A DNA stretch of 27,857 bases, from the IMG/VR virus record IMGVR_UViG_2737471861_000021; one strand, given 5' to 3'. The notes beneath the pieces were generated by a model. It was not told the DNA's origin and did not search any database. It was given only the letters and a program-made list of their open reading frames with translations. Positions 1,961 to 26,590 of the stretch are shown here, piece after piece (positions within the stretch are counted from its first letter, which is position 1; the number at the start of each line of letters is the position of its first letter). Both the position numbers and the translations under genes were made by a program. This stretch comes from a virus (Duplodnaviria; Heunggongvirae; Uroviricota; Caudoviricetes).

Positions 1961-3432
1961 CAGATGCAGCGTTATCTCCTGAAGAGCAGTTAATCGAAGA
2001 TATTGCAGGGTTCACTCACGATCCGCTTGGCTATGCCCTCTATGCGTTCCCTTGGGGGGAAGAGGGGACTGAACTGGCACATGCTACCGGTCCACGTCAG
2101 TGGCAGGCCGATGCGTTCCGAGAGATACGTGATCACCTGCAGAATCCAGAGACGCGCTATCAGCCGCTTATGCTGGCACGCGCTTCTGGTCACGGTATTG
2201 GTAAATCCGCATTCATCTCAATGCTGATCAACTGGGGCATGTCCACTTGCGAGGATTGTAAGGTCGTGGTGACCGCCAACACCGACAACCAGCTACGAAC
2301 GAAGACCTGGCCGGAAATTATCAAGTGGTCGAACCTTGCCATCACGAAAGACTGGTTTACCTGTACCGCTACCGCGATGTACAGCAATGATCCTGGGCAC
2401 GACAAGCGGTGGCGAGCTGACGCAATCCCCTGGTCTGAGCACAACACTGAGGCATTCGCCGGACTACACAACGAGCGCAAACGCATCATCGTGGTATTCG
2501 ATGAAGCGTCGAACATTGCGGATCTGGTGTGGGAAGTTGCTGAGGGGGCGCTAACGGACGAAGACACTGAGATTATCTGGGTGGCGTTCGGAAACCCTAC
2601 ACGTAACACCGGGCGTTTCCGCGAATGTTTCCGCAAATATAAACACCGCTGGAAAACTGCGCAGATTGACAGCCGGACGGTGGAAGGCACCAACAAACAG
2701 CAGTTGCAGAAATGGGTTGATGACTACGGGGAAGACAGCGACTTCGTTAAAATCCGTGTGCGCGGCATATTCCCGGATGCATCTGAATTGCAGTTTATCC
2801 CTACCGGACTTACTGACGAGGCAATGAAACGGGTGGTCACCGCTGCGCAGGTGGCGCATGCTCCGGTGATAATCGGTGTTGACCCGGCATATTCAGGCGT
2901 TGATGACGCGGTGATATACCTGCGGCAGGGGCTACACAGTAAGGTGCTGTGGACTGGCAACAAGACTACCGACGATCTGATTATGGCGAAGCGTATCGCT
3001 GACTTTGAAGACCAGTATCAGGCTGACGCGGTGTTCATCGACTTCGGTTACGGAACAGGTTTGAAGTCAATCGGTGATGGCTGGGGACGTACATGGCAAC
3101 TTGTTCCGTTCGGCGGTGCGTCCACCGATCCCCAGATGCTCAACAAGCGCGGCGAGATGTTCAACTCATGCAAGACATGGCTGAGGCTGGGCGGCATGCT
3201 TGATGACCAGGAAACAGCGGACGACCTGTCGGCGGCAGAGTACAAAGTTCGAGTGGACGGTAAAATCGTTATCGAACCGAAGGAAGATATCAAGGAGCGG
3301 CTTGGGCGTTCTCCTGGTAAAGGCGATGCGCTATTGCTGACGTTTGCCTTCCCTGTGTCGAAGCGTCTGCGAATTCCAGGTCAGCAGAACCAGCAAGGCA
3401 AGGCCATTACAGATTACGATCCCTATGCTTAA
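1957..3432 (+). CDS. Terminase large subunit
   Basis: 491-aa ORF immediately after terS with a GTGA overlap. Size, position and an ATPase-like N-terminus followed by a nuclease-like C-terminus are typical of a large terminase. Confidence 0.8.
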   Translation: MTDAALSPEEQLIEDIAGFTHDPLGYALYAFPWGEEGTELAHATGPRQWQADAFREIRDHLQNPETRYQPLMLARASGHGIGKSAFISMLINWGMSTCEDCKVVVTANTDNQLRTKTWPEIIKWSNLAITKDWFTCTATAMYSNDPGHDKRWRADAIPWSEHNTEAFAGLHNERKRIIVVFDEASNIADLVWEVAEGALTDEDTEIIWVAFGNPTRNTGRFRECFRKYKHRWKTAQIDSRTVEGTNKQQLQKWVDDYGEDSDFVKIRVRGIFPDASELQFIPTGLTDEAMKRVVTAAQVAHAPVIIGVDPAYSGVDDAVIYLRQGLHSKVLWTGNKTTDDLIMAKRIADFEDQYQADAVFIDFGYGTGLKSIGDGWGRTWQLVPFGGASTDPQMLNKRGEMFNSCKTWLRLGGMLDDQETADDLSAAEYKVRVDGKIVIEPKEDIKERLGRSPGKGDALLLTFAFPVSKRLRIPGQQNQQGKAITDYDPYA

Positions 3433-3482
3433 TCCGCTGGTGGGGATAATGTCGTTGATATCCTCTGGTGAGGATAAAACAA

Positions 3483-3507
3483 AGCCAGCTCATAGGCTGG
3501 CTGTTTG
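3483..3507. terminator. Bidirectional terminator hairpin between convergent genes
   Basis: AGCCAGC-tcatag-GCTGGCT stem-loop flanked by an A-run upstream and GTTTG downstream. Sits between terL (+) and the convergent 123-aa gene (-). Confidence 0.5.
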
Positions 3508-3519
3508 TGACATGTCACG
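3506..3519. repeat. Palindrome TGTGACATGTCACG, copy 2 of 3
   Basis: Identical 14-mer to copy 1; 4 bp beyond the stop of the minus-strand 123-aa gene and abutting the terminator hairpin. Confidence 0.7.
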
Positions 3520-3522
3520 GTG

Positions 3523-3894
3523 TTATTGCTCGCTTAACTTCTGCTTCAGCAAGTAACCTTCAAGCATCCAGATTTTGTTTACAGCATTCTGCCGGGCAAT
3601 CTTCCGACCAATTTCTGCATCAAAGTTTTCCGGGCTTGCACAGGCGCTCTCTCCGGTGACGGTGAAGCCGTTGCGCAGCACCAGGACGCAGAACGTCAGC
3701 AGAGAAAGTGATTCGTGCGGCTGGTAGTTTACCTCTCCGCCAGTATGTTTCGCTTTTATGGATTTGCCAAAGGCACCATCTTCTGCTGTGAAATATGCCT
3801 CCTGAGCAATAATGCCTTCGATATGGTCTGGCGTAACGCGCGGTGCCGTTTTGCCTTTCTCAACGATTTCTTTTTCGATTTGCTGGTCGTTCAT
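3523..3894 (-). CDS. Conserved hypothetical phage protein, reverse-oriented cargo gene (possibly N4 gp49/Sf6 gp66-like)
   Basis: 123-aa ORF on the minus strand with a strong RBS (AAGGTGAG) before its ATG. Opposite orientation to all flanking structural genes. Family guess is recollection only. Confidence 0.55.
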   Translation of the reverse strand: MNDQQIEKEIVEKGKTAPRVTPDHIEGIIAQEAYFTAEDGAFGKSIKAKHTGGEVNYQPHESLSLLTFCVLVLRNGFTVTGESACASPENFDAEIGRKIARQNAVNKIWMLEGYLLKQKLSEQ

Positions 3895-3905
3895 AATCTC
3901 ACCTT

Positions 3906-3929
3906 AAAAAAATGCCCGGCGAACCGGGC
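3906..3929 (-). terminator. Hairpin plus U-tract (minus strand) directly abutting the RBS of the 123-aa gene
   Basis: Minus-strand GCCCGG-TTCG-CCGGGC followed by TTTTTTT; the T-run ends at the RBS. Could be a terminator, attenuator or processing site. Confidence 0.4.
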
Positions 3930-4002
3930 GAACTGGAAGCAATGAGTTATGCCTTCCGTGGCTGTACGGGTTTACAGCATGAAGTCATCGCAATGGCGTC
4001 CT

Positions 4003-4049
4003 GCTGTAAAAAGGGCGGTGATAGTCCTTCAAGGGAAACCATCACCGCC
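4003..4049 (-). terminator. Possible terminator hairpin downstream of the tRNA
   Basis: 9-bp stem GGCGGTGAT/ATCACCGCC with a large loop, followed on the minus strand by CTTTTTAC. About 45 nt 3' of the tRNA. Confidence 0.3.
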
Positions 4050-4092
4050 AAGCACCTGGAACTTCTGGCATCACGGTCCTTAGGCGTGATTC

Positions 4093-4169
4093 TGGCGTGG
4101 CATGCAGGATTCGAACCTGCGACCAACCGCTTAGAAGGCGGTTGCTCTGTCCAACTGAGCTAATGCCAC
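4093..4169 (-). tRNA. tRNA-Arg (anticodon UCU)
   Basis: Minus-strand 77-nt sequence GTGGCATTAGCTCAGTTGGACAGAGCAACCGCCTTCTAAGCGGTTGGTCGCAGGTTCGAATCCTGCATGCCACGCCA folded by hand into a cloverleaf: 7-bp acceptor stem, GCTC/GAGC D-stem, anticodon loop CUUCUAA (UCU), GCAGG-TTCGAAT-CCTGC T-arm, encoded CCA. Closely resembles E. coli argU as I recall it. Confidence 0.85.
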
Positions 4170-4596
4170 AACGCTGAGAGCACTTAGCCTGTTAAGGCAC
4201 CACACTTTGTCGCGGCTCCATAAATGCTCTCATCGTTGTACCCTCGTCTCTTCCGAGGCGTCACACCGAATCGCCGGGATGGTGAATCCCCGTGCGCGGA
4301 ATAAAACCGCTCGACTTGCACATTCCGGCTACCTGGTTCGTTTGCCCGAGCAAGGGAGGGTGCCCCTTAAACGTATCCAGACCGCTATCGGCGCATGTGC
4401 CATACGCCGTACTGCTCAAAATAAAAGCTCACTCCACCTGTTCAATTTAACGACAAGCCAGTCAGGTTAGTAACCGGAATGAACTCTTTGGTTACCTGAA
4501 AGGTAATAATTTGTGCGTTAAATGTCAACTATCTACGATAAATAAATCATATGTGGTTAAATTGGTAATAATTTAATTGCGTACGGAGTCATTGAT

Positions 4597-4803
4597 ATGT
4601 GCATGGGTAGCTCACCGTCAGTGCCTGCAACACCAGAAGTTCAGGCAGCACCACAGGAGCAGGATGCCGCCGTTGTTGATGCCCGCGACGAAGAAACTCG
4701 TCGCCGTCGCGCTGCTGCTGGTCGTAGTTCTACGCTGCTTACCGGTTCTCAGGGCGACACATCAACCGCTAATACCAGCGGTAAAACGCTGCTTGGTCAG
4801 TAA
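4597..4803 (+). CDS. Small protein encoded directly upstream of the portal gene (possible minor virion protein)
   Basis: 68-aa ORF with a GGAG RBS. N-terminus 'MCMGSSPS...' and an Ala/Arg-rich middle. The alternative-frame ORF 4577..4816 looks less protein-like. Confidence 0.4.
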   Translation: MCMGSSPSVPATPEVQAAPQEQDAAVVDARDEETRRRRAAAGRSSTLLTGSQGDTSTANTSGKTLLGQ

Positions 4804-4817
4804 CCGGAGTCATTGAA

Positions 4818-6497
4818 ATGGCTGAAACAACTAAAGAGCGATTGAACAAACAGTTCGCACAACTTGAAAGCGAGCGTCAGTCGTTCGAGCCGCACTGGCG
4901 CGAGTTGAGTGATTACATCAACCCGCGTGGTTCCCGCTTTCTGACTTCTGAGGTCAACCGTAACGATCGACGCAATACACGCATTATTGATTCGACCGGG
5001 ACTATGGCGGCGCGCACTCTCGCCAGCGGCATGATGTCAGGCATCACAAGCCCCGCGCGTCCGTGGTTTCGCCTGGCTACGCCAGATCCTGAAATGATGG
5101 ATTATGGCCCTGTTAAGTTGTGGCTTGAGGCGGTGCAGAACCGCATGAACGATATGTTCAATAAGTCGAATCTCTACCAGTCTCTTCCGCAGTTATACGG
5201 AAGCCTCGGCACATACAGCACTGGTGCAATGGCAGTGCTGGAGGATGACGAGGACATCATTCGTACAATGCCATTCCCGATAGGCAGTTACTACCTGGCT
5301 AACTCACCTCGTGGCAGTGTTGACACCTGTTTTCGCAAGTTCTCTATGACTGTTCGTCAGCTTGTTCAGGAGTTCGGGCTAAATAACGTCAGCGAATCCG
5401 TAAAAAGCATGTGGGAAAGCGGCACCTACGAGAAGTGGATCGAAGTGATGCATTCGGTTTACCCGAACATTGACCGCGATACATCGAAGCTGGATAGCAA
5501 GAACAAGCCATTCAAATCGGTTTATTACGAGGTTGGCGGCGATAACGACAAGTTGTTGCGTGAGTCCGGATTCGATGAGTTTCCAATTATGGCTCCGCGC
5601 TGGGAAGTTAACGGCGAAGATGTTTATGGATCATCATGCCCGGGTATGCTGGCGCTTGGACCTGTTAAGGCATTGCAGCTTCTCCAGAAGCGCAAGTCGC
5701 AGTTGATTGATAAAGCCACCAATCCGCCGATGGTTGCTCCGACTTCCCTCAAGAATCAGCGCGCCTCCCTTCTTCCTGGCGACATCACGTATATCGATCA
5801 GATTACTGGTCAGGATGGTTTCAGGCCTGCTTATCTGGTTAACCCCAGTACAGCAGATCTGGTGGCAGACATTCAGGACACTCGCCAAATCATTAACAGC
5901 GCCTACTTTGTCGATCTGTTCATGATGTTGCAGAACATCAATACCCGCTCGATGCCTGTTGAAGCGGTGATCGAAATGAAAGAAGAAAAACTTCTGATGT
6001 TGGGGCCGGTTCTGGAGCGTCTGAACGACGAATGTCTTAATCCTCTCATTGACCGCGCTTTCTCTATGATGGTGCGTAAAAACATGCTGCCGCCACCGCC
6101 TTACGCGATGGAAGGCATGCCCCTGAAGGTCGAATACATTTCCGTCATGGCTCAGGCGCAGAAGTCTATCGGCCTGTCCAGTCTGGCGTCCACGGTTAAC
6201 TTCATTGGTCAACTTGCGCAAGCGAAACCAGAAGCTCTCGACAAACTCAACGTTGATCAGGCGATCGATGCATTCGCTGATATGTCCGGAGTGTCTCCAA
6301 CCGTCATTGTTCCGCAGGAACAGGTTGAGCAGGCTCGCCAGCAACGGGCACAGCAACAACAGCAGCAACAAATGATGGCGATGGGGATGGCGGCGGCACA
6401 GGGTGCCAAGACGCTAAGTGAAGCTAAAACTTCGGATCCGAGTGTTTTGTCAGCTATGGCGAATGCAGTTAGTGGTCAGGGTGGGCAATCACAATGA
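4818..6497 (+). CDS. Portal / head-to-tail connector protein (T7 gp8-like)
   Basis: 559-aa ORF. The C-terminal 'QQQQQQQMMAMGMAAAQGA' tail and overall pattern resemble the T7-type connector (recollection). Positioned after terminase; stop overlaps the next start (ATGA). Confidence 0.85.
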   Translation: MAETTKERLNKQFAQLESERQSFEPHWRELSDYINPRGSRFLTSEVNRNDRRNTRIIDSTGTMAARTLASGMMSGITSPARPWFRLATPDPEMMDYGPVKLWLEAVQNRMNDMFNKSNLYQSLPQLYGSLGTYSTGAMAVLEDDEDIIRTMPFPIGSYYLANSPRGSVDTCFRKFSMTVRQLVQEFGLNNVSESVKSMWESGTYEKWIEVMHSVYPNIDRDTSKLDSKNKPFKSVYYEVGGDNDKLLRESGFDEFPIMAPRWEVNGEDVYGSSCPGMLALGPVKALQLLQKRKSQLIDKATNPPMVAPTSLKNQRASLLPGDITYIDQITGQDGFRPAYLVNPSTADLVADIQDTRQIINSAYFVDLFMMLQNINTRSMPVEAVIEMKEEKLLMLGPVLERLNDECLNPLIDRAFSMMVRKNMLPPPPYAMEGMPLKVEYISVMAQAQKSIGLSSLASTVNFIGQLAQAKPEALDKLNVDQAIDAFADMSGVSPTVIVPQEQVEQARQQRAQQQQQQQMMAMGMAAAQGAKTLSEAKTSDPSVLSAMANAVSGQGGQSQ

Positions 6498-6790
6498 CAG
6501 ATTACGAAGACGATCAACTGAAAGAAGAAAACGACCGTAAGCAACGTGACATGGCACAGCGTGAAATTGATGACATTCGCTTTGTCATGAGCAGTGAACA
6601 GGGGCGTCGAGTTGTCTGGTCGGTGCTGGAGAAAGGCCGTGTGTTTTCCGCTATCTCGCCGATGGACGCTATGGCAATGGCATTTAATGAGGGGCAACGC
6701 AATCTGGCGCTGGAACTGTTTCAGCGCGTTATGGCGCATTGCCCTGAACAGTATTTGAAGATGGCCAAAGAGGCCAGTGAACAGGAGTGA
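6494..6790 (+). CDS. Small head-assembly-associated protein, function unknown
   Basis: 98-aa acidic ORF translationally coupled to both portal and scaffold genes. Confidence 0.5.
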   Translation: MTDYEDDQLKEENDRKQRDMAQREIDDIRFVMSSEQGRRVVWSVLEKGRVFSAISPMDAMAMAFNEGQRNLALELFQRVMAHCPEQYLKMAKEASEQE

Positions 6791-10303: not shown

Positions 10304-12774
10304 TGGCTATCAGTTGGATCCAGCCCAGCTTTGCCGGTGGTGAGATTGGACCGTCGTTGTACGGTCGTATCGACATGGCGAAGTACCAGGTGGCATTGCG
10401 CAAGTGCGATAACTTTATCGTGCGGCAGTATGGCGGCGTTGAGAATCGACCTGGTACGCGTTTTGTCGGTGCCGCCAAATACCCAAATCGGAAATGCCGC
10501 CTGATCCCGTTCCAGTTCTCGACGGTTCAGACCTACGCTCTGGAGTTCGGACACCAGTACATGCGCGTTATCAAAGATGGTGCGTTGGTGCTGAACAGCA
10601 GCAATGTTATTTATGAAATTGCCACACCATATACTGAAGCCGATCTGTTCCGAATTAAATTCACGCAAAGCGCCGACGTGCTTACGCTGGTTCATCCGGC
10701 ATACCCGCCGAAAGAGTTGCGCCGCTATGCGCATGACAACTGGCAACTGGTTGATGTGGTAACGAAGAACGGGCCATTTGAAGATATCAATATTGACGAG
10801 TCAGTGACGGTTTATGCCAGCGCCAGCACCGGGACAATTACGTTAACGGCAAGCGCCTCTATTTTTGGCGCGGAGCAAGTAGGCAAATTGTTCTATCTGG
10901 AACAGCCTGCAGTGGATTTAGCACCGGTATGGGAAACCAGTAAGAGTACGTCGATTGGCGATATTCGCCGTGCAGACAGTAACTACTATCGCGCCGTTAC
11001 AGCAGGCAAAACAGGTACTTTGCGCCCTTCGCATACAGAAGGCACATCATGGGATGGCTGGGGCGGATCCGGTGATGATGATACTGGCATTGAGTGGGAG
11101 TATCTGCACAGTGGTTTTGGCATTGCCCGTATCACTGCTGCAAATGGCACTACTGCAACTGCCGAGGTAATTTCCTATATCCCTTCGCAGGTCGTTGGCG
11201 AGGATAATGCCAGCTATAAATGGGCTAAATATGCTTGGAACAGTGTTAATGGCTATCCTGGCACTGTTGTTTATTATCAACAACGTCTTTACTTCGCCGC
11301 ATCGACTGCGTTCCCTCAGACTATCTGGGCCAGCCGTACTGGGGATTATAAGGATTTTGGCAAAAGCAATCCTACGCAGGATGATGACAGAATTATCTAC
11401 ACCTATGCCGGGCGTCAGGTTAATGAGATCCGCCACCTGATTGATGTTGGTTCGCTGGTGGCGCTGACTTCCGGAGGTGAGTACGTCATCACCGGCGACC
11501 AGAACAAAGTATTAACCCCATCATCATTTGCATTCAGCTCTCAGGGATCAAATGGCTCGAGCAATGTCCCACCAATTGCCGTGGCGAATATTGCTCTGTT
11601 CGTCCAGGAGAAAGGCAGTGTTGTCCGTGATCTGGCCTACTCATTCGATGTTGACGGTTATCAGGGGAACGACCTTACTATCCTTGCCAATCATCTTTTT
11701 CAGAAGCACAGAATTGTTGACTGGTGCTTCTCGATTGTCCCTTACTCTAGTGCCTTCTGCATTCGTGATGACGGTAAATTACTGGTGATGACCTATTTGC
11801 GTGATCAGCAGGTTTTTGCATGGGCACCACAATCCAGTACCGGAAAATATGAAAGCACATGCAGTATCAGCGAAGGAAATGAAGATGCGGTGTATTTCGT
11901 CGTTAACCGAACCGTTAACGGGCAAACAGTGAGATACATCGAGAGACTGTCCAGCCGTTTATTTACCAGCGATGAAGATGCTTTCTTTGTTGATTCTGGC
12001 CTTAGCTATGATGGAAGAAATACGTCTGACAGAACGATGATCATCACTGGTGGTTCTGGTGAATGGGATTACCGCGCGGAATATACAATCAGTGTTTCTG
12101 GTGGTGCGTACTTCACCAGTAGTGATGTCGGTGCGCAACTACAGTTCCCTTATACCGGAACTGTTCCTGATACTGGCGATGAAGTGTCAAAAGAATTACG
12201 TTGCGACATTATTTCTGTAACCAGCAATACCGCTGTAGTGGTTCGTGCTAACAGGAACGTCCCGCCATCCCTCAGGAATGTGGCCACCACGAACTGGCAG
12301 ATGGCGCGCCGGACATTTGGAGGCCTGTCTCATCTTGAAGGCCAGACCGTAAACATTCTCTCTGATGCGAACGTGGAACCACAGAAAGTGGTTTCCGGAG
12401 GTGCCGTCACGCTGGAATCTCCGGGGGCTGTAGTGCACATCGGCCTGCCAATAACTGCTGAATTCGAAACACTGGATATCAACATTAACGGACAGGAAAC
12501 GCTGCTGGACAAAAAACAGGTGATCCCCTCCGTTACTCTGGTTGTGAATGCCAGTCGCGGCATCTGGGCGACTACGCCCGGCGGTAAATGGTACGAATAT
12601 CCACAGCGTGAATTCGAGTTCTACGATGATCCTGTTGATGATGCTACCGGAAAAGTAGAAGTGAAACTGGACAGTAACTGGGGCAAAAACGGACGTGTAA
12701 AAATCCGTCAGCTTGATCCGTTGCCGCTGTCTGTTCTTGCCGTTATTCCTCGCCTTACTGTTGGGGGATTCTGA
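10303..12774 (+). CDS. Tail tubular protein B / nozzle (T7 gp12-like)
   Basis: 823-aa ORF after the adaptor gene; size and order match a podovirus nozzle protein. Confidence 0.55.
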   Translation: MAISWIQPSFAGGEIGPSLYGRIDMAKYQVALRKCDNFIVRQYGGVENRPGTRFVGAAKYPNRKCRLIPFQFSTVQTYALEFGHQYMRVIKDGALVLNSSNVIYEIATPYTEADLFRIKFTQSADVLTLVHPAYPPKELRRYAHDNWQLVDVVTKNGPFEDINIDESVTVYASASTGTITLTASASIFGAEQVGKLFYLEQPAVDLAPVWETSKSTSIGDIRRADSNYYRAVTAGKTGTLRPSHTEGTSWDGWGGSGDDDTGIEWEYLHSGFGIARITAANGTTATAEVISYIPSQVVGEDNASYKWAKYAWNSVNGYPGTVVYYQQRLYFAASTAFPQTIWASRTGDYKDFGKSNPTQDDDRIIYTYAGRQVNEIRHLIDVGSLVALTSGGEYVITGDQNKVLTPSSFAFSSQGSNGSSNVPPIAVANIALFVQEKGSVVRDLAYSFDVDGYQGNDLTILANHLFQKHRIVDWCFSIVPYSSAFCIRDDGKLLVMTYLRDQQVFAWAPQSSTGKYESTCSISEGNEDAVYFVVNRTVNGQTVRYIERLSSRLFTSDEDAFFVDSGLSYDGRNTSDRTMIITGGSGEWDYRAEYTISVSGGAYFTSSDVGAQLQFPYTGTVPDTGDEVSKELRCDIISVTSNTAVVVRANRNVPPSLRNVATTNWQMARRTFGGLSHLEGQTVNILSDANVEPQKVVSGGAVTLESPGAVVHIGLPITAEFETLDININGQETLLDKKQVIPSVTLVVNASRGIWATTPGGKWYEYPQREFEFYDDPVDDATGKVEVKLDSNWGKNGRVKIRQLDPLPLSVLAVIPRLTVGGF

Positions 12775-13238
12775 TGATCGATGTTCAAATTATTCCCGCA
12801 ACCGAAGAGCATCTTCAGATGATTTTGCCGGATGTTCGTCAGGCTGATATTGACGAACTGTATGCGGTATCGCTGATGACTACCGAAGATGCGCTGCGTG
12901 TTGGTCTTCGCACTGCGACTATGGCCTGGTCAGGGTTCGCGAACGGAGAACTGGTAACCATGTTTGGTGTATCTCCGGCGTCAATGATCGGTGGCAATGG
13001 TACGCCCTGGCTGGTAGGAACCAGCCGTATTGAAAAATATCAGAAGACATTTCTTCGCCACTGCCGCCCTGTATTGCAGCAGATGCTGGCAGTTTATCCG
13101 CGCCTGGAAAACTACGTCGACGAGCGAAACCATGTTGCCAAAGCATGGCTGCACTGGCTTGGATTCAGGCTTGAAGAAGCCGCGCCTTATGGTGCTCTTG
13201 GTCTTAATTTCCACAGATTTCACATGGAGAGAAAATAA
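12774..13238 (+). CDS. Virion-associated protein, function unknown
   Basis: 154-aa ORF translationally coupled (TGATG) to the nozzle gene. Confidence 0.45.
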   Translation: MIDVQIIPATEEHLQMILPDVRQADIDELYAVSLMTTEDALRVGLRTATMAWSGFANGELVTMFGVSPASMIGGNGTPWLVGTSRIEKYQKTFLRHCRPVLQQMLAVYPRLENYVDERNHVAKAWLHWLGFRLEEAAPYGALGLNFHRFHMERK

Positions 13239-13777
13239 TGTGTAACCCAGCCATCGCTTTGGTTGCCGTCACAGTGGCATCCACAGCCGCGTCAATGTAC
13301 AGCCAGAGCAAGCAGGCAAAATACCAGTCAGCCATAGCTGATCGGAATGCTGAAATTGCTGAAGCTCAGGCACAGGATTCAATCAATCGTGGGAATATTG
13401 AAGCGGATCAGCGTCGTCGTGAAATGCGTCAACGCTCAGGCACTGCGGCGGCCACTATGGGGGCTACCGGTGCGGAATTAAGTAGCGGAACAGCTCTTGA
13501 CGTTTTTGCTGATAATGCTCAGTTCGGCACTCTTGATGCGTTAACGACAGTGAATAATGCTCAGCGTGAGGCATATGGGTATCAGGTTCAGGGAATGAAT
13601 GCTCAGGCACAGGGGGCTGCTGCTCAGTCGGCTGCTAAATCATCGATGACCAGCACTTTGTTAACGGCACCACTAAAAGCATACGGTGCATACCAGATGG
13701 GCGGAGGAACGTGGAGCCCATTCTCTCAGAAGGCTGCGCCGATTTCTGCTGCTGTTGGCACTCCAACCGGTCGATAA
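13238..13777 (+). CDS. Internal virion protein (gp14-like, putative)
   Basis: 179 aa with a hydrophobic N-terminal segment (AIALVAVTVASTAAS) and an Ala/Gln-rich remainder. Sits at the head of the run of large core genes. Confidence 0.45.
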   Translation: MCNPAIALVAVTVASTAASMYSQSKQAKYQSAIADRNAEIAEAQAQDSINRGNIEADQRRREMRQRSGTAAATMGATGAELSSGTALDVFADNAQFGTLDALTTVNNAQREAYGYQVQGMNAQAQGAAAQSAAKSSMTSTLLTAPLKAYGAYQMGGGTWSPFSQKAAPISAAVGTPTGR

Positions 13778-13789
13778 GGGGATAATAAG

Positions 13790-16303
13790 ATGCCAGTTGT
13801 ACCAACAACATCGGGCCGTCAGGTTCAGAGCAGGGGGATTTCGACGCAGGGATTCTCATCGTTTCAGACGCCAAATGTCGGTGATGTACTTGGCGATGTT
13901 GCAGAGCAATATGCAGGTATTATTGCGCAGGCAAAACAGCGTGCGAATGTTGCTATGGCTCAGGATGCTTCTCTTAGCTTAAGCCAGATAAGCAGCGATC
14001 TGCTGAATAACCCTGAAACAGGTTTGCTTAACCTGAAAGGGAAAAATGCTATTGGAAAAGGTCAGGAGTATACGCAGCAGTTTGATGCCCAGGTCGAGCA
14101 ACTGGCTATGTCGCTGCCGGATGAACAGGCTCGTAATGCTTTCATGCAGCAGGCGCAGCAGCAGCGCATTCAGTTCACTACGCAGGCCGGGCGGCACGAG
14201 ATAGGGCAAATAAATGCCTACGAAGAAGGCCAGTTTCAGGCGACGCTGCTGAACAATGGTAAAAATGCCGCAGCATTGTATGGCGACAACGCCGCATACG
14301 TATTGGCTAATAAGCAAACTTTCCAGCAAATTGAGGATTACGGCATTGCGCATGGCTGGAGCGACGAGCAAATCCAGGCCAAGAAAATCGAGTTTAAAGA
14401 GAAGGTTGCTGATGCAGCATTGTCCCAGTGGTCGGCAAACAATGCGACCGCATTCATCCAAAGTAATGGCGAGTTAAGTGATACTGCTGCTGGAGCTCGC
14501 CGTGCTGTAGCAGATAGTGATTCTTCCGAGCGTGCCCGTGGCATACGCAACAATAACCCAGGAAATCTCGAATACAGCAAAACCAATCCGTGGGTAGGCC
14601 AGACCGGTGATGATGGTCGATTTGCTAAATTCGAAACACCTGAACACGGGATTCGTGCATTAGGGCGGAACCTGATGTCGTATCAGAGGCAGGGTATTGA
14701 TACCGTCAGCGAGATAATTAATCGCTGGGCACCGCCTACTGATAAAAATGACACTATGTCGTATATCAAAGCAGTGTGCGAACAACTTGGCGTTTCTGCT
14801 GATGAGCCTCTCGATGCATCTAATCCTGATACCCTGAAGGCGCTTTGTGCAGCCATTATCCATCATGAGAACGGTAGCCAGCCATACAGTGATCAGCAGT
14901 TAACTGCTGGTGTCAGTGCAGCACTTGGTTTATCAACAATTCCAACCAACACCAAACGCTATACCGGTAATGCAGCATTCGATGCGGCATCTCCTGAGGC
15001 GCAGGCAAGTTTTATGCGACAGGCGGATCAACTGCGTCGGCAGCAGCAGGCTGAATATAAAACGATGATTGACAGCCAAGTTCGCGATGCGACATCTGCG
15101 TATATGCGTGGCGTTGAATTTCCTAACCCACCTGGTGAGGCTGATTTTATTGCAGCTTATGGAGTCAGAGAAGGAAACCTGCGATATACCGAGTTCAGAA
15201 ATACGCAAATCGCCGGACAGTATATAGGCTCTTTCCGCAACATGCCGACAAGCAGCATTACAGCATATGTTGAGCAATTACGCCCGGATACTGGTGAGAC
15301 AGGGGAGGGGTATGCGGCACGCGCAGCTCTTTATGACAACGTTGTTTCGGCTGCAAATCAGGTGATAAAGCAGCGGCAATCGGATCCTGTGCAGTTCTCT
15401 CTTGCCGCCGGACAGGCAAAGCCTATCGACATGAGCAATAAGGATAACTTTGGACAGAGCGTTGCCTTGCGTGCCGCTCAGGTCAGTGACCTTGCTAAGT
15501 CATATGGCACTCCACTGACGTTCTTTTCCAAAGACGAGGCCAATCAGATCGGTGTTTTCTTTCGTGATGCTCCAGTTTCCCAACAGGCAGCATATCTCGA
15601 TACCATCAGGCAGAGCACTGGTGGTGGGCAGGTGTATATGTCAGCACTACAGCAGATCAGTGCCAACGCTCCATCTGCTGCCGTTGCCGGGATACTGATG
15701 GATAAGCCAGGTGGTATTTTGGCAGAAAAAAACTGGTTTAATCCGGATGTTTCCGTGTCTCCTGAAACCGCTGCGCAGACAATTCTTGCTGGCGCGGCGG
15801 CTCGTAAAGGTACTGATGATGCGAAAGGTATTCCGATGCCTAAAGATGCTGATCTTCGCCTTGAGTTTTCTGACATGGTGAAGGATGCATTTGCTGGTGA
15901 CGCTCAGGGGGCATCAATGGCATACGAGATCGCAAAGGATTATTACGCTGGTGTGATGGCGAAAAAAGGCGTGGTATCAGGCGAAATTGACAATGATGTC
16001 TGGAAACAGGCTGTTAACGTAGCTACAGGTGGCGTGCATGACTATAACGGAATGGGGAATGTCCTTTTGCCGTGGGGAATGTCTGCGGAGCAATTCGATA
16101 AGCAGGTTAATCAGGCTTGGAATGAACAAGTTGTCGGCTCCGGGATAAAAACACCGCCTGGTCAGTATGGTTTGCAAAGTTACGGCGATAGTCAGTACCT
16201 GGTGAAACTTGGTACTGGTTATCTGCTGAAAGATGATGGTTCTCCCGTTGTTCTTAATCTGACACAGAAGCGTCAGAGATTCTCCGGAGATATTCCGCAA
16301 TGA
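13790..16303 (+). CDS. Internal core / ejection protein
   Basis: 837-aa ORF in the core-protein block. Carries a conserved-looking 'GIRNNNPGNLEYSKTNPWVGQ...GRFAKFETPEHGIRA' segment of unassigned function. Confidence 0.6.
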   Translation: MPVVPTTSGRQVQSRGISTQGFSSFQTPNVGDVLGDVAEQYAGIIAQAKQRANVAMAQDASLSLSQISSDLLNNPETGLLNLKGKNAIGKGQEYTQQFDAQVEQLAMSLPDEQARNAFMQQAQQQRIQFTTQAGRHEIGQINAYEEGQFQATLLNNGKNAAALYGDNAAYVLANKQTFQQIEDYGIAHGWSDEQIQAKKIEFKEKVADAALSQWSANNATAFIQSNGELSDTAAGARRAVADSDSSERARGIRNNNPGNLEYSKTNPWVGQTGDDGRFAKFETPEHGIRALGRNLMSYQRQGIDTVSEIINRWAPPTDKNDTMSYIKAVCEQLGVSADEPLDASNPDTLKALCAAIIHHENGSQPYSDQQLTAGVSAALGLSTIPTNTKRYTGNAAFDAASPEAQASFMRQADQLRRQQQAEYKTMIDSQVRDATSAYMRGVEFPNPPGEADFIAAYGVREGNLRYTEFRNTQIAGQYIGSFRNMPTSSITAYVEQLRPDTGETGEGYAARAALYDNVVSAANQVIKQRQSDPVQFSLAAGQAKPIDMSNKDNFGQSVALRAAQVSDLAKSYGTPLTFFSKDEANQIGVFFRDAPVSQQAAYLDTIRQSTGGGQVYMSALQQISANAPSAAVAGILMDKPGGILAEKNWFNPDVSVSPETAAQTILAGAAARKGTDDAKGIPMPKDADLRLEFSDMVKDAFAGDAQGASMAYEIAKDYYAGVMAKKGVVSGEIDNDVWKQAVNVATGGVHDYNGMGNVLLPWGMSAEQFDKQVNQAWNEQVVGSGIKTPPGQYGLQSYGDSQYLVKLGTGYLLKDDGSPVVLNLTQKRQRFSGDIPQ

Positions 16304-21228: not shown

Positions 21229-23418
21229 ATGACGGTCTCAACCGAAGTTGACCACAACGAATACACAGGCAATGGCGTTACGACTTCATTCCCTTATACC
21301 TTTAGGGTTTTCAATGAATCTGATCTGGTAGTGCAGGTGGTTGACCTTGACGAAAATATCGCTGTACTGGCTCTTGATACTGATTACACTGTCACTGGGG
21401 CTGGAGGATATAACGGCGGTAATGTAATTCTGTCGAAGGCGTTAGCTAACGGTTACCAGATTTCTATATCACGAGAGCTCCCGGTTACGCAGGAAACTGA
21501 TTTGCGTAATCAGGGTAAGTTCTTTGCAGAAGTGCATGAGGATGCTTTTGATAAGCTAACGATGCTGATCCAGCAGGTTCGAAGTTGGTTCAGTTTGGCT
21601 CTGCGTAAGCCATCATTTGTTGCTAATTATTATGATGCCTTGAACAATTACATCCGCAATTTACGTGATCCTTCAAGACCTCAAGATGCAGCCACTAAAA
21701 ATTATGTTGATACACAGCTCAGTACTAGCCTCAGGTGCACATTGCGCGTTCAGGAGCAGATTCCGATACTTCCTGACGCTGCCTCCCGTGAAAACAAGAT
21801 GCTTGCTTTCGATAACAATGGTAACCCCATTGTTGTACTTCCTCCATCTGGCTCTGCTTCTGATGTATTGATCGAATTAGCTAAACCAGCAGGCGCAGGG
21901 ATGATTGGTACCAAATCAGGAGATACTGTTCAAGATACGTTGGATGAACTCAATCATAAATCAGGTTATGATAATTCTGATATTTCTTTGTATGGATATA
22001 TATATGGTAGTGGAGAGGACGCTAAGCCTTATGTTCTTGCAGCCATAGGTAAAACAGGGGTTGCGCATATCAGCGGTGATACCACATTATCAAGATTTGA
22101 CTGGCCCCAAGGTGCAAGGATTACCGGAAAAGCAACGATCACATACACAAGGCTACCAAACGTTCCATGTGAACTTGATAGTGAAATACCTGTAAACCAT
22201 TCACTAATGAAAGCTGTATATGTTCATGAGGTATTTGATATCTGCGATATGTTACAAATAAAAACAGCAGGATTTAATACTTTAATTCATTATGGTCAGG
22301 CATGGCGTGATGGTGGAGACATGGAAAAAGCATGTAACGCAGCGGAAGCAATAGGATTGCGTTTGATTTTGGGCGGGCCAATATACGGACAGACAGATAC
22401 GCCATCTTCAGAACTGGACGATAGAGATTGTGTTATAGGATATTATCTATTTGATGAACCTCAAAACCATTCTATATCGGCTTCTGCCCAGGCTACTAGA
22501 ATAAACGCGTTCAAGGCTTTCACTAAAAAGTCGCTATGTATAGCTGATAATGGCATCTTTGCTTTTGATTCACCTACTATTCCGTCAGGGTACGATGGTG
22601 TTGGCTACGATTACATATTCATTGACGCTTACGCATACGCTAATCGAGATTTCGCCACGAATAAAAGAGCGGCAGTGCTATGTTGGGCGGAAATGAAATA
22701 CAAATCCCCAAATTCTAAGCTGATCCCTTGCTTGGGTATGTTTAGCGAACCTTCTGAGTTTTCAGATAAGTCAAAGCAAATATCTTTTGCAAGGAAATTC
22801 TTTGGGATGGGGCCCGGTGATTATGCCGCCTTTGCTTGGGAGAGCAATCTTATTATTGGCACATTCAAAGACATAACTAATGATTCTGACTTTTATAATG
22901 AAGTTTTAAGTTATAATTGCATAACAGAACAAAAACCATACAAAACAGATGTTTATGTGTTTTACACAGATAGAATGGGTGGGGCTATGCAGTTGTACAA
23001 TGACAAGTACAGTTCTGCCGATGTCACACCATTCCAGACTATCAATGCTGGGAGCGCACAAGGTGAGCGTAACACCACATTCAAAAAGGGTGGTATCGCG
23101 GCAAGAAACACCGGAGGCGTGTTTGCTACGAGGATGAAGAACCACGGGTACGTGGCTGTTGAGCTGTATTATTTTAACGGTGCAGATACCGCAAATACTA
23201 CAGCATCAATAACAACTTGCATTGACGATTTTTACACAAACACCCCGCAGCTTACGTTCACGCTCTCAACTACACAAAACGCCTGGATAAACTCTGTGGA
23301 AACAACACCTAATCTCGGTGTTGGTATAAAGATTATCCCAAGCCAATCTTACCAATATAGGTGGAAATTCATATATGGTGGCATAGTTGATTGCTCATGG
23401 AGAGGTGATTCATTTTAA
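21229..23418 (+). CDS. Tailspike / receptor-binding protein
   Basis: 729-aa ORF with a GGAGA RBS. N-terminus 'MTVSTEVDHNEYTGNGVTTSFPYTFRVF...' matches what I recall of the epsilon15-family tailspike head-binding domain. The distal two-thirds is AT-rich and divergent. Confidence 0.8.
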   Translation: MTVSTEVDHNEYTGNGVTTSFPYTFRVFNESDLVVQVVDLDENIAVLALDTDYTVTGAGGYNGGNVILSKALANGYQISISRELPVTQETDLRNQGKFFAEVHEDAFDKLTMLIQQVRSWFSLALRKPSFVANYYDALNNYIRNLRDPSRPQDAATKNYVDTQLSTSLRCTLRVQEQIPILPDAASRENKMLAFDNNGNPIVVLPPSGSASDVLIELAKPAGAGMIGTKSGDTVQDTLDELNHKSGYDNSDISLYGYIYGSGEDAKPYVLAAIGKTGVAHISGDTTLSRFDWPQGARITGKATITYTRLPNVPCELDSEIPVNHSLMKAVYVHEVFDICDMLQIKTAGFNTLIHYGQAWRDGGDMEKACNAAEAIGLRLILGGPIYGQTDTPSSELDDRDCVIGYYLFDEPQNHSISASAQATRINAFKAFTKKSLCIADNGIFAFDSPTIPSGYDGVGYDYIFIDAYAYANRDFATNKRAAVLCWAEMKYKSPNSKLIPCLGMFSEPSEFSDKSKQISFARKFFGMGPGDYAAFAWESNLIIGTFKDITNDSDFYNEVLSYNCITEQKPYKTDVYVFYTDRMGGAMQLYNDKYSSADVTPFQTINAGSAQGERNTTFKKGGIAARNTGGVFATRMKNHGYVAVELYYFNGADTANTTASITTCIDDFYTNTPQLTFTLSTTQNAWINSVETTPNLGVGIKIIPSQSYQYRWKFIYGGIVDCSWRGDSF

Positions 23419-25477: not shown

Positions 25478-26096
25478 ACAATTCCAGCGAGCTGCTGGTA
25501 TCAGTGAGTCACTGGCCGCACGCTGGTTCTCGCATATAACTTCTGCGATGAAAGAGTTTGGTATCAGCAAACCAGAAGATCAGGCTATGTTTATTGCTCA
25601 GGTCGGGCATGAGTCTGGAGGCTTCACCCGGTTGCAGGAGAATTTCAACTACAGCGTCAGCGGACTGGCTAACTTTGTTCGGGCTGGGCGTCTCACTCAG
25701 GGACAGGCCAACGCATTGGGGCGACGCGCAGGCGAACCACCATTGCCACTTGAGCGCCAGCGCGCGATCGCAAATCTGGTATACAGCAAACGCATGGGGA
25801 ACAATGCCCCTGGTGATGGCTGGAATTACCGAGGGCGCGGACTTATCCAGATTACCGGTTTGAATAACTATCGTGATTGCGGAAACGGTCTGAAGGTTGA
25901 CCTGCTGGAGAGCCCTGAACTGCTGGCGCAGGACGAATATGCGGCTCGTAGCGCGGCGTGGTTCTTCGCCAGCAAAGGATGCATGAAGTATACCGGCGAT
26001 ATTGCACGTGTAACTCTGATTATCAATGGTGGCCGGAACGGCATCGACGACCGGCGAGCGCGGTACATCACTGCCAGTAAGGTGCTGGCGGTATGA
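25467..26096 (+). CDS. Endolysin, glycoside hydrolase family 19 (chitinase-like) type
   Basis: 209 aa. '[12 protein letters not shown]', '[12 protein letters not shown]' and '[12 protein letters not shown]' are GH19 endolysin signatures; from memory it is very close to the Salmonella phage SPN1S endolysin. Confidence 0.9.
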
Positions 26097-26590
26097 TCTG
26101 GGCATTCGTAAAAGCATACTGGAAACAGTTGCTTATCGTGGCAGTGCTTGCTGTTCTGGTCATATCAGGAGTGGTTGCCTGGAATATACACGGCAGTCGC
26201 CAGTACGATGCCGGGTATGCTCAGGCGAAGGAAGATCAGAAACAGGCTGATGATAAGTTAAGGTCACAGCGTGAGCAGGAGAAAACACAAATTGAACGTG
26301 AAGCACAATCCCGTATCGATGCGGCGCGTGCTGATGCTGAGTATGCTAATTCCGCTGCTGACAGCATGCGCGCCGAGCTTGACAAAACCAGGCGGCTCGC
26401 CGAACACTATACCGGATCTTTCCCCCCTGGCACGCCAGCCAGCAAGGTCATCGGTGTGCTCGCCGACATGCTTGAAGAAAGCAACCGAGTTTACAACGCA
26501 ACAGCAGCTGAGGCTGAAAAGTATCGTATCGCAGGGGAATTCTGCGAGCAGCAATACGATTCACTGAAGAAGCAAAAATCGTGGCACTGA
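26093..26590 (+). CDS. Rz: i-spanin (Rz-like)
   Basis: 165 aa with an N-terminal TM helix ([18 protein letters not shown]) and a charged coiled-coil-like periplasmic domain; directly follows the endolysin with an ATGA overlap. Confidence 0.7.
26319..26567 (+). CDS. Rz1: o-spanin lipoprotein (Rz1-like), embedded in the +1 frame of Rz
   Basis: Internal ATG of track ORF 26271..26567. Signal peptide [17 protein letters not shown] with an LTAC lipobox, followed by a Pro-rich mature region. Lies entirely within Rz in a different frame. Confidence 0.6.
   Translation: MRRVLMLSMLIPLLTACAPSLTKPGGSPNTIPDLSPLARQPARSSVCSPTCLKKATEFTTQQQLRLKSIVSQGNSASSNTIH

Follow-up and report, generated by a model that had tools for sequence, protein, structure and literature searches.

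A small protein encoded directly upstream of the portal gene in epsilon15/phiV10-type phages as a candidate ejection accessory

What is the role of the small open reading frame (ORF) that precedes the portal gene in podophages of the epsilon15/phiV10 type? We analyzed this question in IMG/VR virus record IMGVR_UViG_2737471861_000021, a stretch of 27,857 nucleotides (nt) which is referred to as the window throughout the text, and in particular an ORF of 68 codons (ORF68) that opens the late structural operon. In short-tailed phages, the small proteins that are ejected are difficult to identify from sequence, and those of T7 were placed in cryo-electron microscopy maps only in 2024. An earlier note on this DNA had proposed that ORF68, on account of its Met-Cys start and its position ahead of the connector gene, might be a functional analogue of the T7 virion protein gp6.7. 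Our analysis leads us to favor, with modest confidence, a small and mostly disordered virion or ejection accessory protein resembling gp6.7 and gp7.3, which would work together with the portal and the ejection proteins. Small portal-proximal proteins of podophages are already known as a kind from T7 gp6.7 and gp7.3. New here are the large, distinct and unannotated family of such proteins in temperate epsilon15/BPP-1-type phages, its interchange with gp6.7 and gp7.3 beside T7-type portals and the paired single cysteines that it shares with gp14.

The window represents a phiV10/epsilon15-like (Uetakevirus) phage or prophage, and the region from 3400 to 6600 is 97% identical to phiV10. The counterparts of ORF68 in the two reference phages are phiV10p06 and epsilon15 gp3, each annotated as 'hypothetical'. 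The translation of ORF68 is MCMGSSPSVPATPEVQAAPQEQDAAVVDARDEETRRRRAAAGRSSTLLTGSQGDTSTANTSGKTLLGQ (68 codons; MCMGSSPS...KTLLGQ), which shares 88% protein identity with epsilon15 gp3. A comparison of both genes revealed 30.5 synonymous and 11.5 non-synonymous differences, corresponding to a ratio of non-synonymous to synonymous substitution rates (dN/dS) of 0.076 at a dS of 1.06. This low ratio clearly indicates that ORF68 is a real gene under strong purifying selection. The start codon is part of a 16-nt initiation box, CGGAGTCATTGA(T/A)ATG, that precedes ORF68 (4580-4599) and occurs again in front of the portal gene (4804-4820), which starts at 4818 and thus 14 nt beyond the stop codon of ORF68. 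The position and length of the ORF given in the earlier note are correct, and its reality is backed by the GGAG ribosome site, the dN/dS value and the homologs.

Searches of ORF68 against Pfam (E<=10), NCBIfam and PDB sequences returned no family and no solved relative, and a tblastn search of ORF68 and one distant member against the phage collection found close relatives only. ORF68 is a full-length member of phrog_831, a group with the function unknown (E=2.4e-36, residues 1-68 on profile positions 3-70 of 70). With a hidden Markov model (HMM) of the family, built from 22 close homologs, and a cut-off of E<=1e-3, we obtained 1,506 matches among representatives of clusters formed at 50% identity. 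Among 143 representatives taken from the best 150 HMM matches and newly listed as P0121-P0263, 114 start with Met-Cys, and in 113 of these 114 it is the sole cysteine of the protein. The consensus of the family reads MC-[FMLIV]-[GS]-S-x-P..P(Pro-rich)..D..V..ARD.ERRRR.AA.G..STILTG..G....A.T..KTLLG; T46, T49 and G53 are near-invariant in the family alignment, and K63, L65 and G67 are conserved to at least 90% in 98 divergent members. AlphaFold2 with a 98-sequence alignment predicts one helix (residues 24-40), with coil or extended tails as the remainder (predicted local distance difference test score 77, predicted template modeling score 0.34). The N-terminus is the variable part of the family: it can consist of Met-Cys with a Lys-rich amphipathic segment, of a Gly-rich hydrophobic segment or of a short hydrophobic pre-sequence before the cysteine.

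Evidence for a connection to the portal comes from the gene order. In a first set of 80 IMG/VR loci, which were fetched by portal alignment and have portals 100-46% identical to that of the window, the small gene, as detected by the family HMM, immediately precedes the portal gene in 75 cases. Distant members on metagenomic contigs are again located directly 5' of a portal gene, and in many relatives the gene lies between the terminase and portal genes. A second set comprised 80 loci with T7-type portals. Here the gp6.7 and gp7.3 HMMs match the T7-like genomes, and in other genomes of the set, with portals 44-47% identical to T7 gp8, a phrog_831-type Met-Cys/Pro-rich protein is encoded 4-23 nt from the portal gene. 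As neither the gp6.7 nor the gp7.3 HMM finds a match at these loci, both kinds of protein occupy the same slot in related machines, and the phrog_831 family interchanges with gp6.7 and gp7.3 beside T7-type portals. According to a 2026 preprint, a small ORF precedes every portal gene of the Autographivirales (10.64898/2026.05.18.726046). The slot assigned to ORF68 in the earlier note needs a correction in this respect: a small gene is indeed located 5' of a portal gene of the T7 family, but in T7 itself the genes 7, 7.3 and 7.7 separate gene 6.7 from gene 8, and it is usually gene 7.3 that adjoins the portal gene in T7-like phages.

Two small Met-Cys ORFs arranged in tandem in front of the portal gene occur in some phages with T7-type portals. 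Examples are MCMSRPKIKAQT with MCKSKPKVKSAP in locus L177, at distances of about 235 and 14 nt from the portal gene, and MCVGPFKPKMPK with MCAGPLKPKKKK in locus L158, at 251 and 18 nt.

The second line of evidence is the cysteine at position 2. A Met-Cys start is found in about 2% of ORFs, and ejection proteins are otherwise depleted of cysteine (PMC11445570). The gp14-type ejection protein of the window (Table 1) has its counterpart in T7 gp14, which starts with MCWAAAIPIA and ends with ..KTGR, and the profiles of epsilon15-type and T7-type gp14 can be aligned with 96.4% probability (E=1.4e-9), the alignment starting at Met-Cys. We tabulated the N-termini of both proteins across 160 loci and counted each N-terminal decamer of gp14 once. 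The small protein and gp14 both start with Met-Cys in 36 lineages, and neither does so in four lineages plus phiKMV and BPP-1. The two apparent exceptions are start-calling or filter artefacts, with an internal MCELITASAAA in L088 and MCMSQPSAPPPAPP located 13 nt from the portal gene in L150. All 37 Met-Cys gp14-like proteins and all 37 Met-Cys small proteins contain exactly one cysteine. Furthermore, gp14 proteins starting with MSGVVIGVG pair with a gp6.7-like ORF starting with MGGLFSKPK (MG(G/A)LFSKPK) rather than with MCFSPK. A similar agreement of the two N-termini, which does not involve cysteine, is found in BPP-1 (L010), where Bbp22 (22762-23169, minus strand) and the gp14-like Bbp12 (14510-15205, minus strand) share the hydrophobic N-termini MSGAVTAVAVGAAVGVGAS and MSGATSAVALGASAASMGS, and in L091, where the small and the gp14-like protein start with MGENNAALGTIL and MGETGGFLAVSA. 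In mature T7, residues 2-15 of gp6.7 and residues 4-86 of gp14 both wrap the portal barrel, and after ejection 12 gp6.7 and 6 gp14 form an extended channel in the nozzle (PMC11784390). Together with these structures, the co-variation of the Met-Cys starts argues that ORF68 is linked to gp14 as gp6.7 is. A search of the literature yielded no discussion of a role for Cys2 in gp6.7 or gp14.

In addition, there is a faint resemblance between the small protein and gp14 themselves. In 17 of 22 variants, no ORF of the locus other than the gp14-like one itself scores higher with the gp14-like HMM than the small protein, and hhalign places residues 29-49 of the small protein on positions 54-74 of the gp14-like profile, with a local score that is reached by 1 of 80 shuffles, and by none of 80 if Met-Cys is left out. 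The motif 'STLLTA' or 'KTLLTGG' is also present near the C-terminus of gp14-like proteins. Nevertheless, the similarity between ORF68 and gp14 is far below the homology threshold (E about 1-10 in 5,539 ORFs) and may reflect a shared composition or shared binding partners.

Based on T7 and phiKMV-type structures, the favored role can be outlined as follows. The ORF68 protein would be packaged in the head beside the portal and would leave the virion at the start of infection, taking over what T7 divides between gp6.7 (adaptor between portal barrel and gp14) and gp7.3. After removal of the methionine, the N-terminal Cys peptide would be located on the outside of the C-terminal helical barrel of the portal, beside the N-terminus of the gp14-type protein, and the Arg-rich helix could, together with the two (S/K)TLL(T)G motifs, hold on to gp14 and the core stack or to DNA. 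When the phage adsorbs, the small protein would leave the virion together with gp14 and might help to build or stabilize the outer-membrane part of the ejection channel. More speculatively, Cys2 of the small protein and Cys2 of gp14 could be a conserved functional pair in T7-like and epsilon15-like podophages, for example as an intermolecular latch at the portal barrel, based on a disulfide or on thiols, that is set in the virion or by host periplasmic oxidases during ejection and that holds or releases the outer-membrane part of the channel. This tentative proposal, which we consider possible rather than probable, includes that the small protein might be a condensed relative of gp14 and that gp6.7, gp7.3 and epsilon15 gp3 might be divergent versions of one ancestral accessory.

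A number of results weigh against an ejection accessory of the gp6.7/gp7.3 kind, among them the direct sequence comparisons. The earlier note was right about the N-terminus of T7 gp6.7 (the protein begins with MCFSPKIKTPK), but pairwise and HMM comparisons detect no similarity of ORF68 to gp6.7 beyond Met-Cys. BLASTP of ORF68 against T7 gp6.7 gives E=2. PF17570 (T7-like_gp67; gathering threshold 25 bits) does not match ORF68 at E<=10, whereas T7 gp6.7 scores 98 bits. An hhalign comparison of the family (alignment A2) with the gp6.7 family (A3) covers 4 columns, MC(F)(S) only, with a probability of 16%. The global profile score between the family and gp6.7 is 12.4 in comparison to 2.1±2.1 for 80 column shuffles (z=4.9) as long as the Met-Cys columns are included; without these two columns it drops to 3.9 (z=0.7), and 17 of 80 shuffles equal or exceed this value. 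The corresponding score against gp7.3 (z=0.9) is no better than shuffles. Rank tests over the whole genomes of T7, phiKMV and BPP-1 and over the window revealed only one significant match across families, that of Bbp22; the family HMM reaches T7 gp6.7 with a non-significant E=0.08, and a home-built gp7.3 HMM reaches ORF68 with 6 bits and an equally non-significant E=0.27 among the 272 ORFs of the window. The co-occurrence of the Met-Cys starts (Fisher's exact p ~7e-6) can be taken as indicative only, because the lineages are related and thus not phylogenetically independent. Moreover, we found no paper on epsilon15 gp3 and no mass-spectrometry or structural evidence of this protein in virions, and the best map of the epsilon15 portal and core that we found has a resolution of about 7 Å.

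Another difficulty arises from a subfamily in which 9-14 hydrophobic residues directly precede the conserved cysteine, namely MRRLILSLLLIPVG, MKTFILNLLLIPMG or MKKVTAIIT. These pre-sequences resemble short lipoprotein signal peptides, yet without a canonical lipobox, and do not fit simply with packaging in the cytoplasm. Start-calling artefacts were considered as explanation and rejected, as the upstream ATGs have good ribosome sites and there is no in-frame start beside the cysteine. Two of the variants (L019, 6001-6243, with MRRLILSLLLIPVG; L020, 574-792, with MKKVTAIIT) belong to head modules of the usual type, ahead of a PF12236 portal gene, and together with the good ribosome sites this setting suggests that the pre-sequences are real. 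A further member, MKTFILNLLLIPMG followed by CFGGSPK (L005, 2938-3177; also L006), is encoded on a 7.2-kilobase contig with an integrase gene, an AlpA gene, a helix-turn-helix gene and replication-initiator-like genes. This contig contains no portal or capsid genes and therefore resembles a phage satellite or another small integrative element; such a location, too, is not easily reconciled with cytoplasmic packaging.

At the level of the whole family, the links to the models of gp6.7 and gp7.3 seem weak but specific. PF17570 is the Pfam family touched by most members (7 of 141), all below threshold with a best E of 0.032. Matches to the gp6.7 group phrog_1391 come from 5 of 141 members and align residues 1-47/60 (best E=3.4e-5), and matches to the gp7.3 group phrog_1320 likewise come from 5 of 141, those with Lys-rich N-termini (best E=0.002). 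Judged by these matches, some members resemble gp7.3 as much as gp6.7. We conclude that membership of ORF68 in the gp6.7 family is not supported, and that the functional analogy suggested in the earlier note remains plausible in view of the shared Met-Cys start, the replacement in the same slot and the co-variation with gp14.

The connection of the gene to the portal and its first place in the head-assembly operon would also suit a morphogenetic factor that acts in assembly only, i.e. a chaperone- or scaffold-like protein which aids the portal ring or the core stack at the procapsid vertex, is absent from mature virions and is not ejected. A disordered protein with one helix is like many assembly chaperones, T7 gp7.3 has been described as needed for the assembly of infective particles, and the lack of reports on epsilon15 gp3 in virions among the papers searched would be in line with such a function. 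However, the closest studied analogs, T7 gp6.7 and gp7.3, Gp17 of PDB entry 9vvp and the phiKMV-type gp34, are all virion proteins, and a single Cys2 that is strictly paired with that of the ejected gp14, in proteins that are otherwise free of cysteine, fits better to a protein that travels with gp14. We regard an assembly-only factor as rather unlikely.

Even more doubtful, in our view, is a merely coincidental resemblance to gp6.7 combined with a role in DNA handling or packaging, for example as an Arg-rich protein that plugs the portal channel or binds the DNA end within it, or as modulator of the interaction between terminase and portal. The RRRR cluster in the sole helix of ORF68 and the location of the gene between terminase and portal in many relatives would agree with such a role, and both the frequency of Met-Cys starts among ORFs and the loss of the profile similarity upon removal of Met-Cys make a chance resemblance conceivable. 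Chance leaves unexplained, however, that Cys2 is invariant, is the only cysteine and appears or disappears in concert with Cys2 of gp14, and that proteins of the gp6.7 and the ORF68 type occur in the same slot of related genomes. This explanation overlaps with the ejection accessory that we favor, because contact with the DNA in the channel has also been described for gp7.3.

An exported lipoprotein or membrane protein for lysis (o-spanin-like) or superinfection exclusion, with a lipidated cysteine and a Pro-rich periplasmic tether, is highly improbable: a cysteine followed by a Pro-rich segment does resemble Rz1-type o-spanins, BPP-1 Bbp22 weakly matches spanin PHROGs and there are the pre-sequence genes with their good upstream ribosome sites, one of them in the satellite-like element, but the Lgt/LspA pathway cannot act on ORF68 and those of the 143 representatives (114) that have the cysteine at position 2 without a signal peptide, ORF68 belongs to the head module and not to a lysis or immunity region, and the pre-sequence variants lack a canonical lipobox and are also found directly upstream of portal genes. 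For ORF68 itself this candidate was rejected, as Cys is residue 2, there is no hydrophobic leader and the window has a separate spanin of its own (Table 1).

ORF68 is embedded in a structural module whose portal, gp13 and gp14 proteins are homologous to those of T7, as the profile matches show; the portals of T7 and of the window match each other's PHROGs. The portal gene is followed by a Bbp19-like gene, a scaffold/protease-like gene, the gene of an epsilon15-type capsid protein and the genes for tail tube A and B, and further downstream by the gp13 and gp14 homologs, larger internal proteins, the tailspike and the lysis cassette. The C-terminal barrel segment of the portal is rich in Gln and Met (..QQQQMMAMGMAAAQG..). 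The family HMM also touches portal C-terminal tails, i.e. residues 495-521 of the window portal (E=1.1 within the genome) and residues 473-505 of the phiKMV portal (L011; E=0.05), which is probably a compositional effect. The conserved leader in front of ORF68 contains a perfect palindrome, TTACCTGAAAGGTAA, at 4492-4506, and the homologous palindrome in the epsilon15 record falls inside features annotated as 'repressor' and 'IHF'.

Table 1. Features of ORF68 and of the structural module in the window.
Feature	Position	Strand	Remarks
Conserved leader of the structural operon	4492..4596	+	about 105 nt, near-invariant across the window, phiV10 and epsilon15; diverges further upstream
Shine-Dalgarno sequence GGAG of ORF68	4585..4588	+	8 nt 5' of the ATG; read from sequence
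ORF68 (68 amino acids)	4597..4803	+	ATG at 4597, TAA at 4801-4803; homolog of epsilon15 gp3 and phiV10p06; member of phrog_831
Cys2 codon	4600..4602	+	only cysteine in ORF68; invariant in family alignments A1 and A2
Residues 24-40 (AAVVDARDEETRRRRAA)	4666..4716	+	sole predicted helix; acidic, then four arginines
STLLTG, residues 45-50	4729..4746	+	first copy of the (S/K)TLL(T)G motif
KTLLGQ, residues 63-68	4783..4800	+	C-terminal motif; most conserved part of the family; common to BPP-1 Bbp22
Portal protein (559 amino acids), T7 gp8 family	4818..6497	+	PF12236, E=6e-187
Internal virion protein A, T7 gp13 homolog	12774..13238	+	phrog_308: window ORF E=9e-63, T7 gp13 E=1e-42
gp14-type ejection protein (179 amino acids)	13238..13777	+	starts MCNPAIALVAV, ends ..PTGR; only Cys at position 2
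Rz-like spanin in the lysis cassette	26093-26590		

Between the terminase and the structural operon, the window contains a 1.1-kilobase insert with a tRNA-Arg gene (anticodon TCT) at 4093-4169 on the minus strand, which overlaps with a plus-strand ORF at 3912-4163 (phrog_4647). This tRNA gene probably explains the many matches to Synechococcus phages in the DNA search. A gene of the N4 gp49/Sf6 gp66 family (PF13876; 3523-3894, minus strand) is oriented opposite to the flanking late genes and resembles a moron insertion that separates the terminase from the head operon.

Taken together, these data extend the rule that a small protein gene precedes the portal gene from the Autographivirales to temperate epsilon15/BPP-1-type phages, and define an unannotated family of more than 1,500 clusters which can stand in for gp6.7 and gp7.3 beside T7-type portals. 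The co-varying single cysteines offer a concrete handle on the tethering of the core to the portal and on its release. In terms of annotation, the label 'hypothetical protein' in front of the portal in such prophages could be replaced by 'putative internal virion/ejection accessory protein'.

How does ORF68 compare with the known systems? With T7 gp6.7 (PF17570, phrog_1391; PDB entries 9jyy, 9jyz and 9jz0) it shares the small size (68 versus 88 amino acids), the invariant Met-Cys start with a single cysteine and an S/P/K-rich N-terminal stretch, after which come an acidic and, further on, a basic region. The two genes are located upstream of a PF12236 portal gene in a late operon and co-occur with a gp14 that also starts with Met-Cys. 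T7 gp6.7 differs in that it has no (S/K)TLL(T)G motif and ends in a Lys-rich tail, and its location in the virion and its ejection are established, whereas those of ORF68 are proposed here. The predicted shape of ORF68, one helix with extended tails, resembles the loops and short helices resolved in gp6.7 and in the phiKMV-type gp34 'wedge'. A clear homolog of gp6.7 is Gp17 in PDB entry 9vvp (chain S, 74 amino acids, 16 chains; E=9e-17), which starts with MCFSPKISTPK. Its name and copy number, the only grounds for this assignment, suggest identity with the 'gp17' of phage E1004, which is present in 16 copies; a literature search on this phage gave no result. A 2026 preprint calls the E1004 'gp17' a putative gp7.3-like factor.

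The gene position immediately 5' of the portal gene is shared with T7 gp7.3 (PF11653, phrog_1320) and with the phiKMV-type gp29/gp34 'wedge', and so are the small size and the low-complexity layout with a P/A/Q-rich, then acidic, then basic part, which the Ar-KM preprint lists for portal-preceding ORFs (10.64898/2026.05.18.726046). In contrast to gp7.3, the N-terminus of ORF68 is MCMGSSPSVPATPE, with no Lys before K63 and thus without a Lys-rich amphipathic N-terminus; the G-G-G-I-N-I/Y end is missing in ORF68, gp7.3 itself has no cysteine, and the Pfam search gives no match of ORF68 to PF11653. A Lys-rich amphipathic N-terminus is present in the family members P0145, P0154, P0172 and P0261, of which P0145, P0172 and P0261 match phrog_1320 at E=0.002-0.02. 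The gene of P0261 follows a GNAT gene, as does that of phiKMV gp29, a virion protein adjoining the portal that links to gp7.3 and to a PHROG which ORF68 also touches.

In comparison with the gp14-type protein (T7 gp14/P22 gp7-type), ORF68 has the same Met-Cys start with a single cysteine and, in the same order, an A-x-D-x-x-R-R-..-G motif and the (S/K)TLLT(G/A) motif, but its length is smaller by about 110 residues, and neither the hydrophobic N-terminal helix nor the helical hairpin is present in it. BPP-1 Bbp22 is like ORF68 encoded directly upstream of the portal gene (bbp21), and its C-terminus SGTMLTGPQGVDQSALTLGKSTLLGQ matches the C-terminal half of the phrog_831 family (family HMM E=0.001 within the BPP-1 genome). 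It differs from ORF68 in its length of 135 amino acids, the absence of cysteine and a hydrophobic Gly/Ala/Val-rich N-terminus that is followed by a Q-rich, coiled-coil-like region. A common ancestry of gp6.7, gp7.3 and the phrog_831 family is possible, albeit unproven, and we read the three as fast-evolving variants of one functional class.

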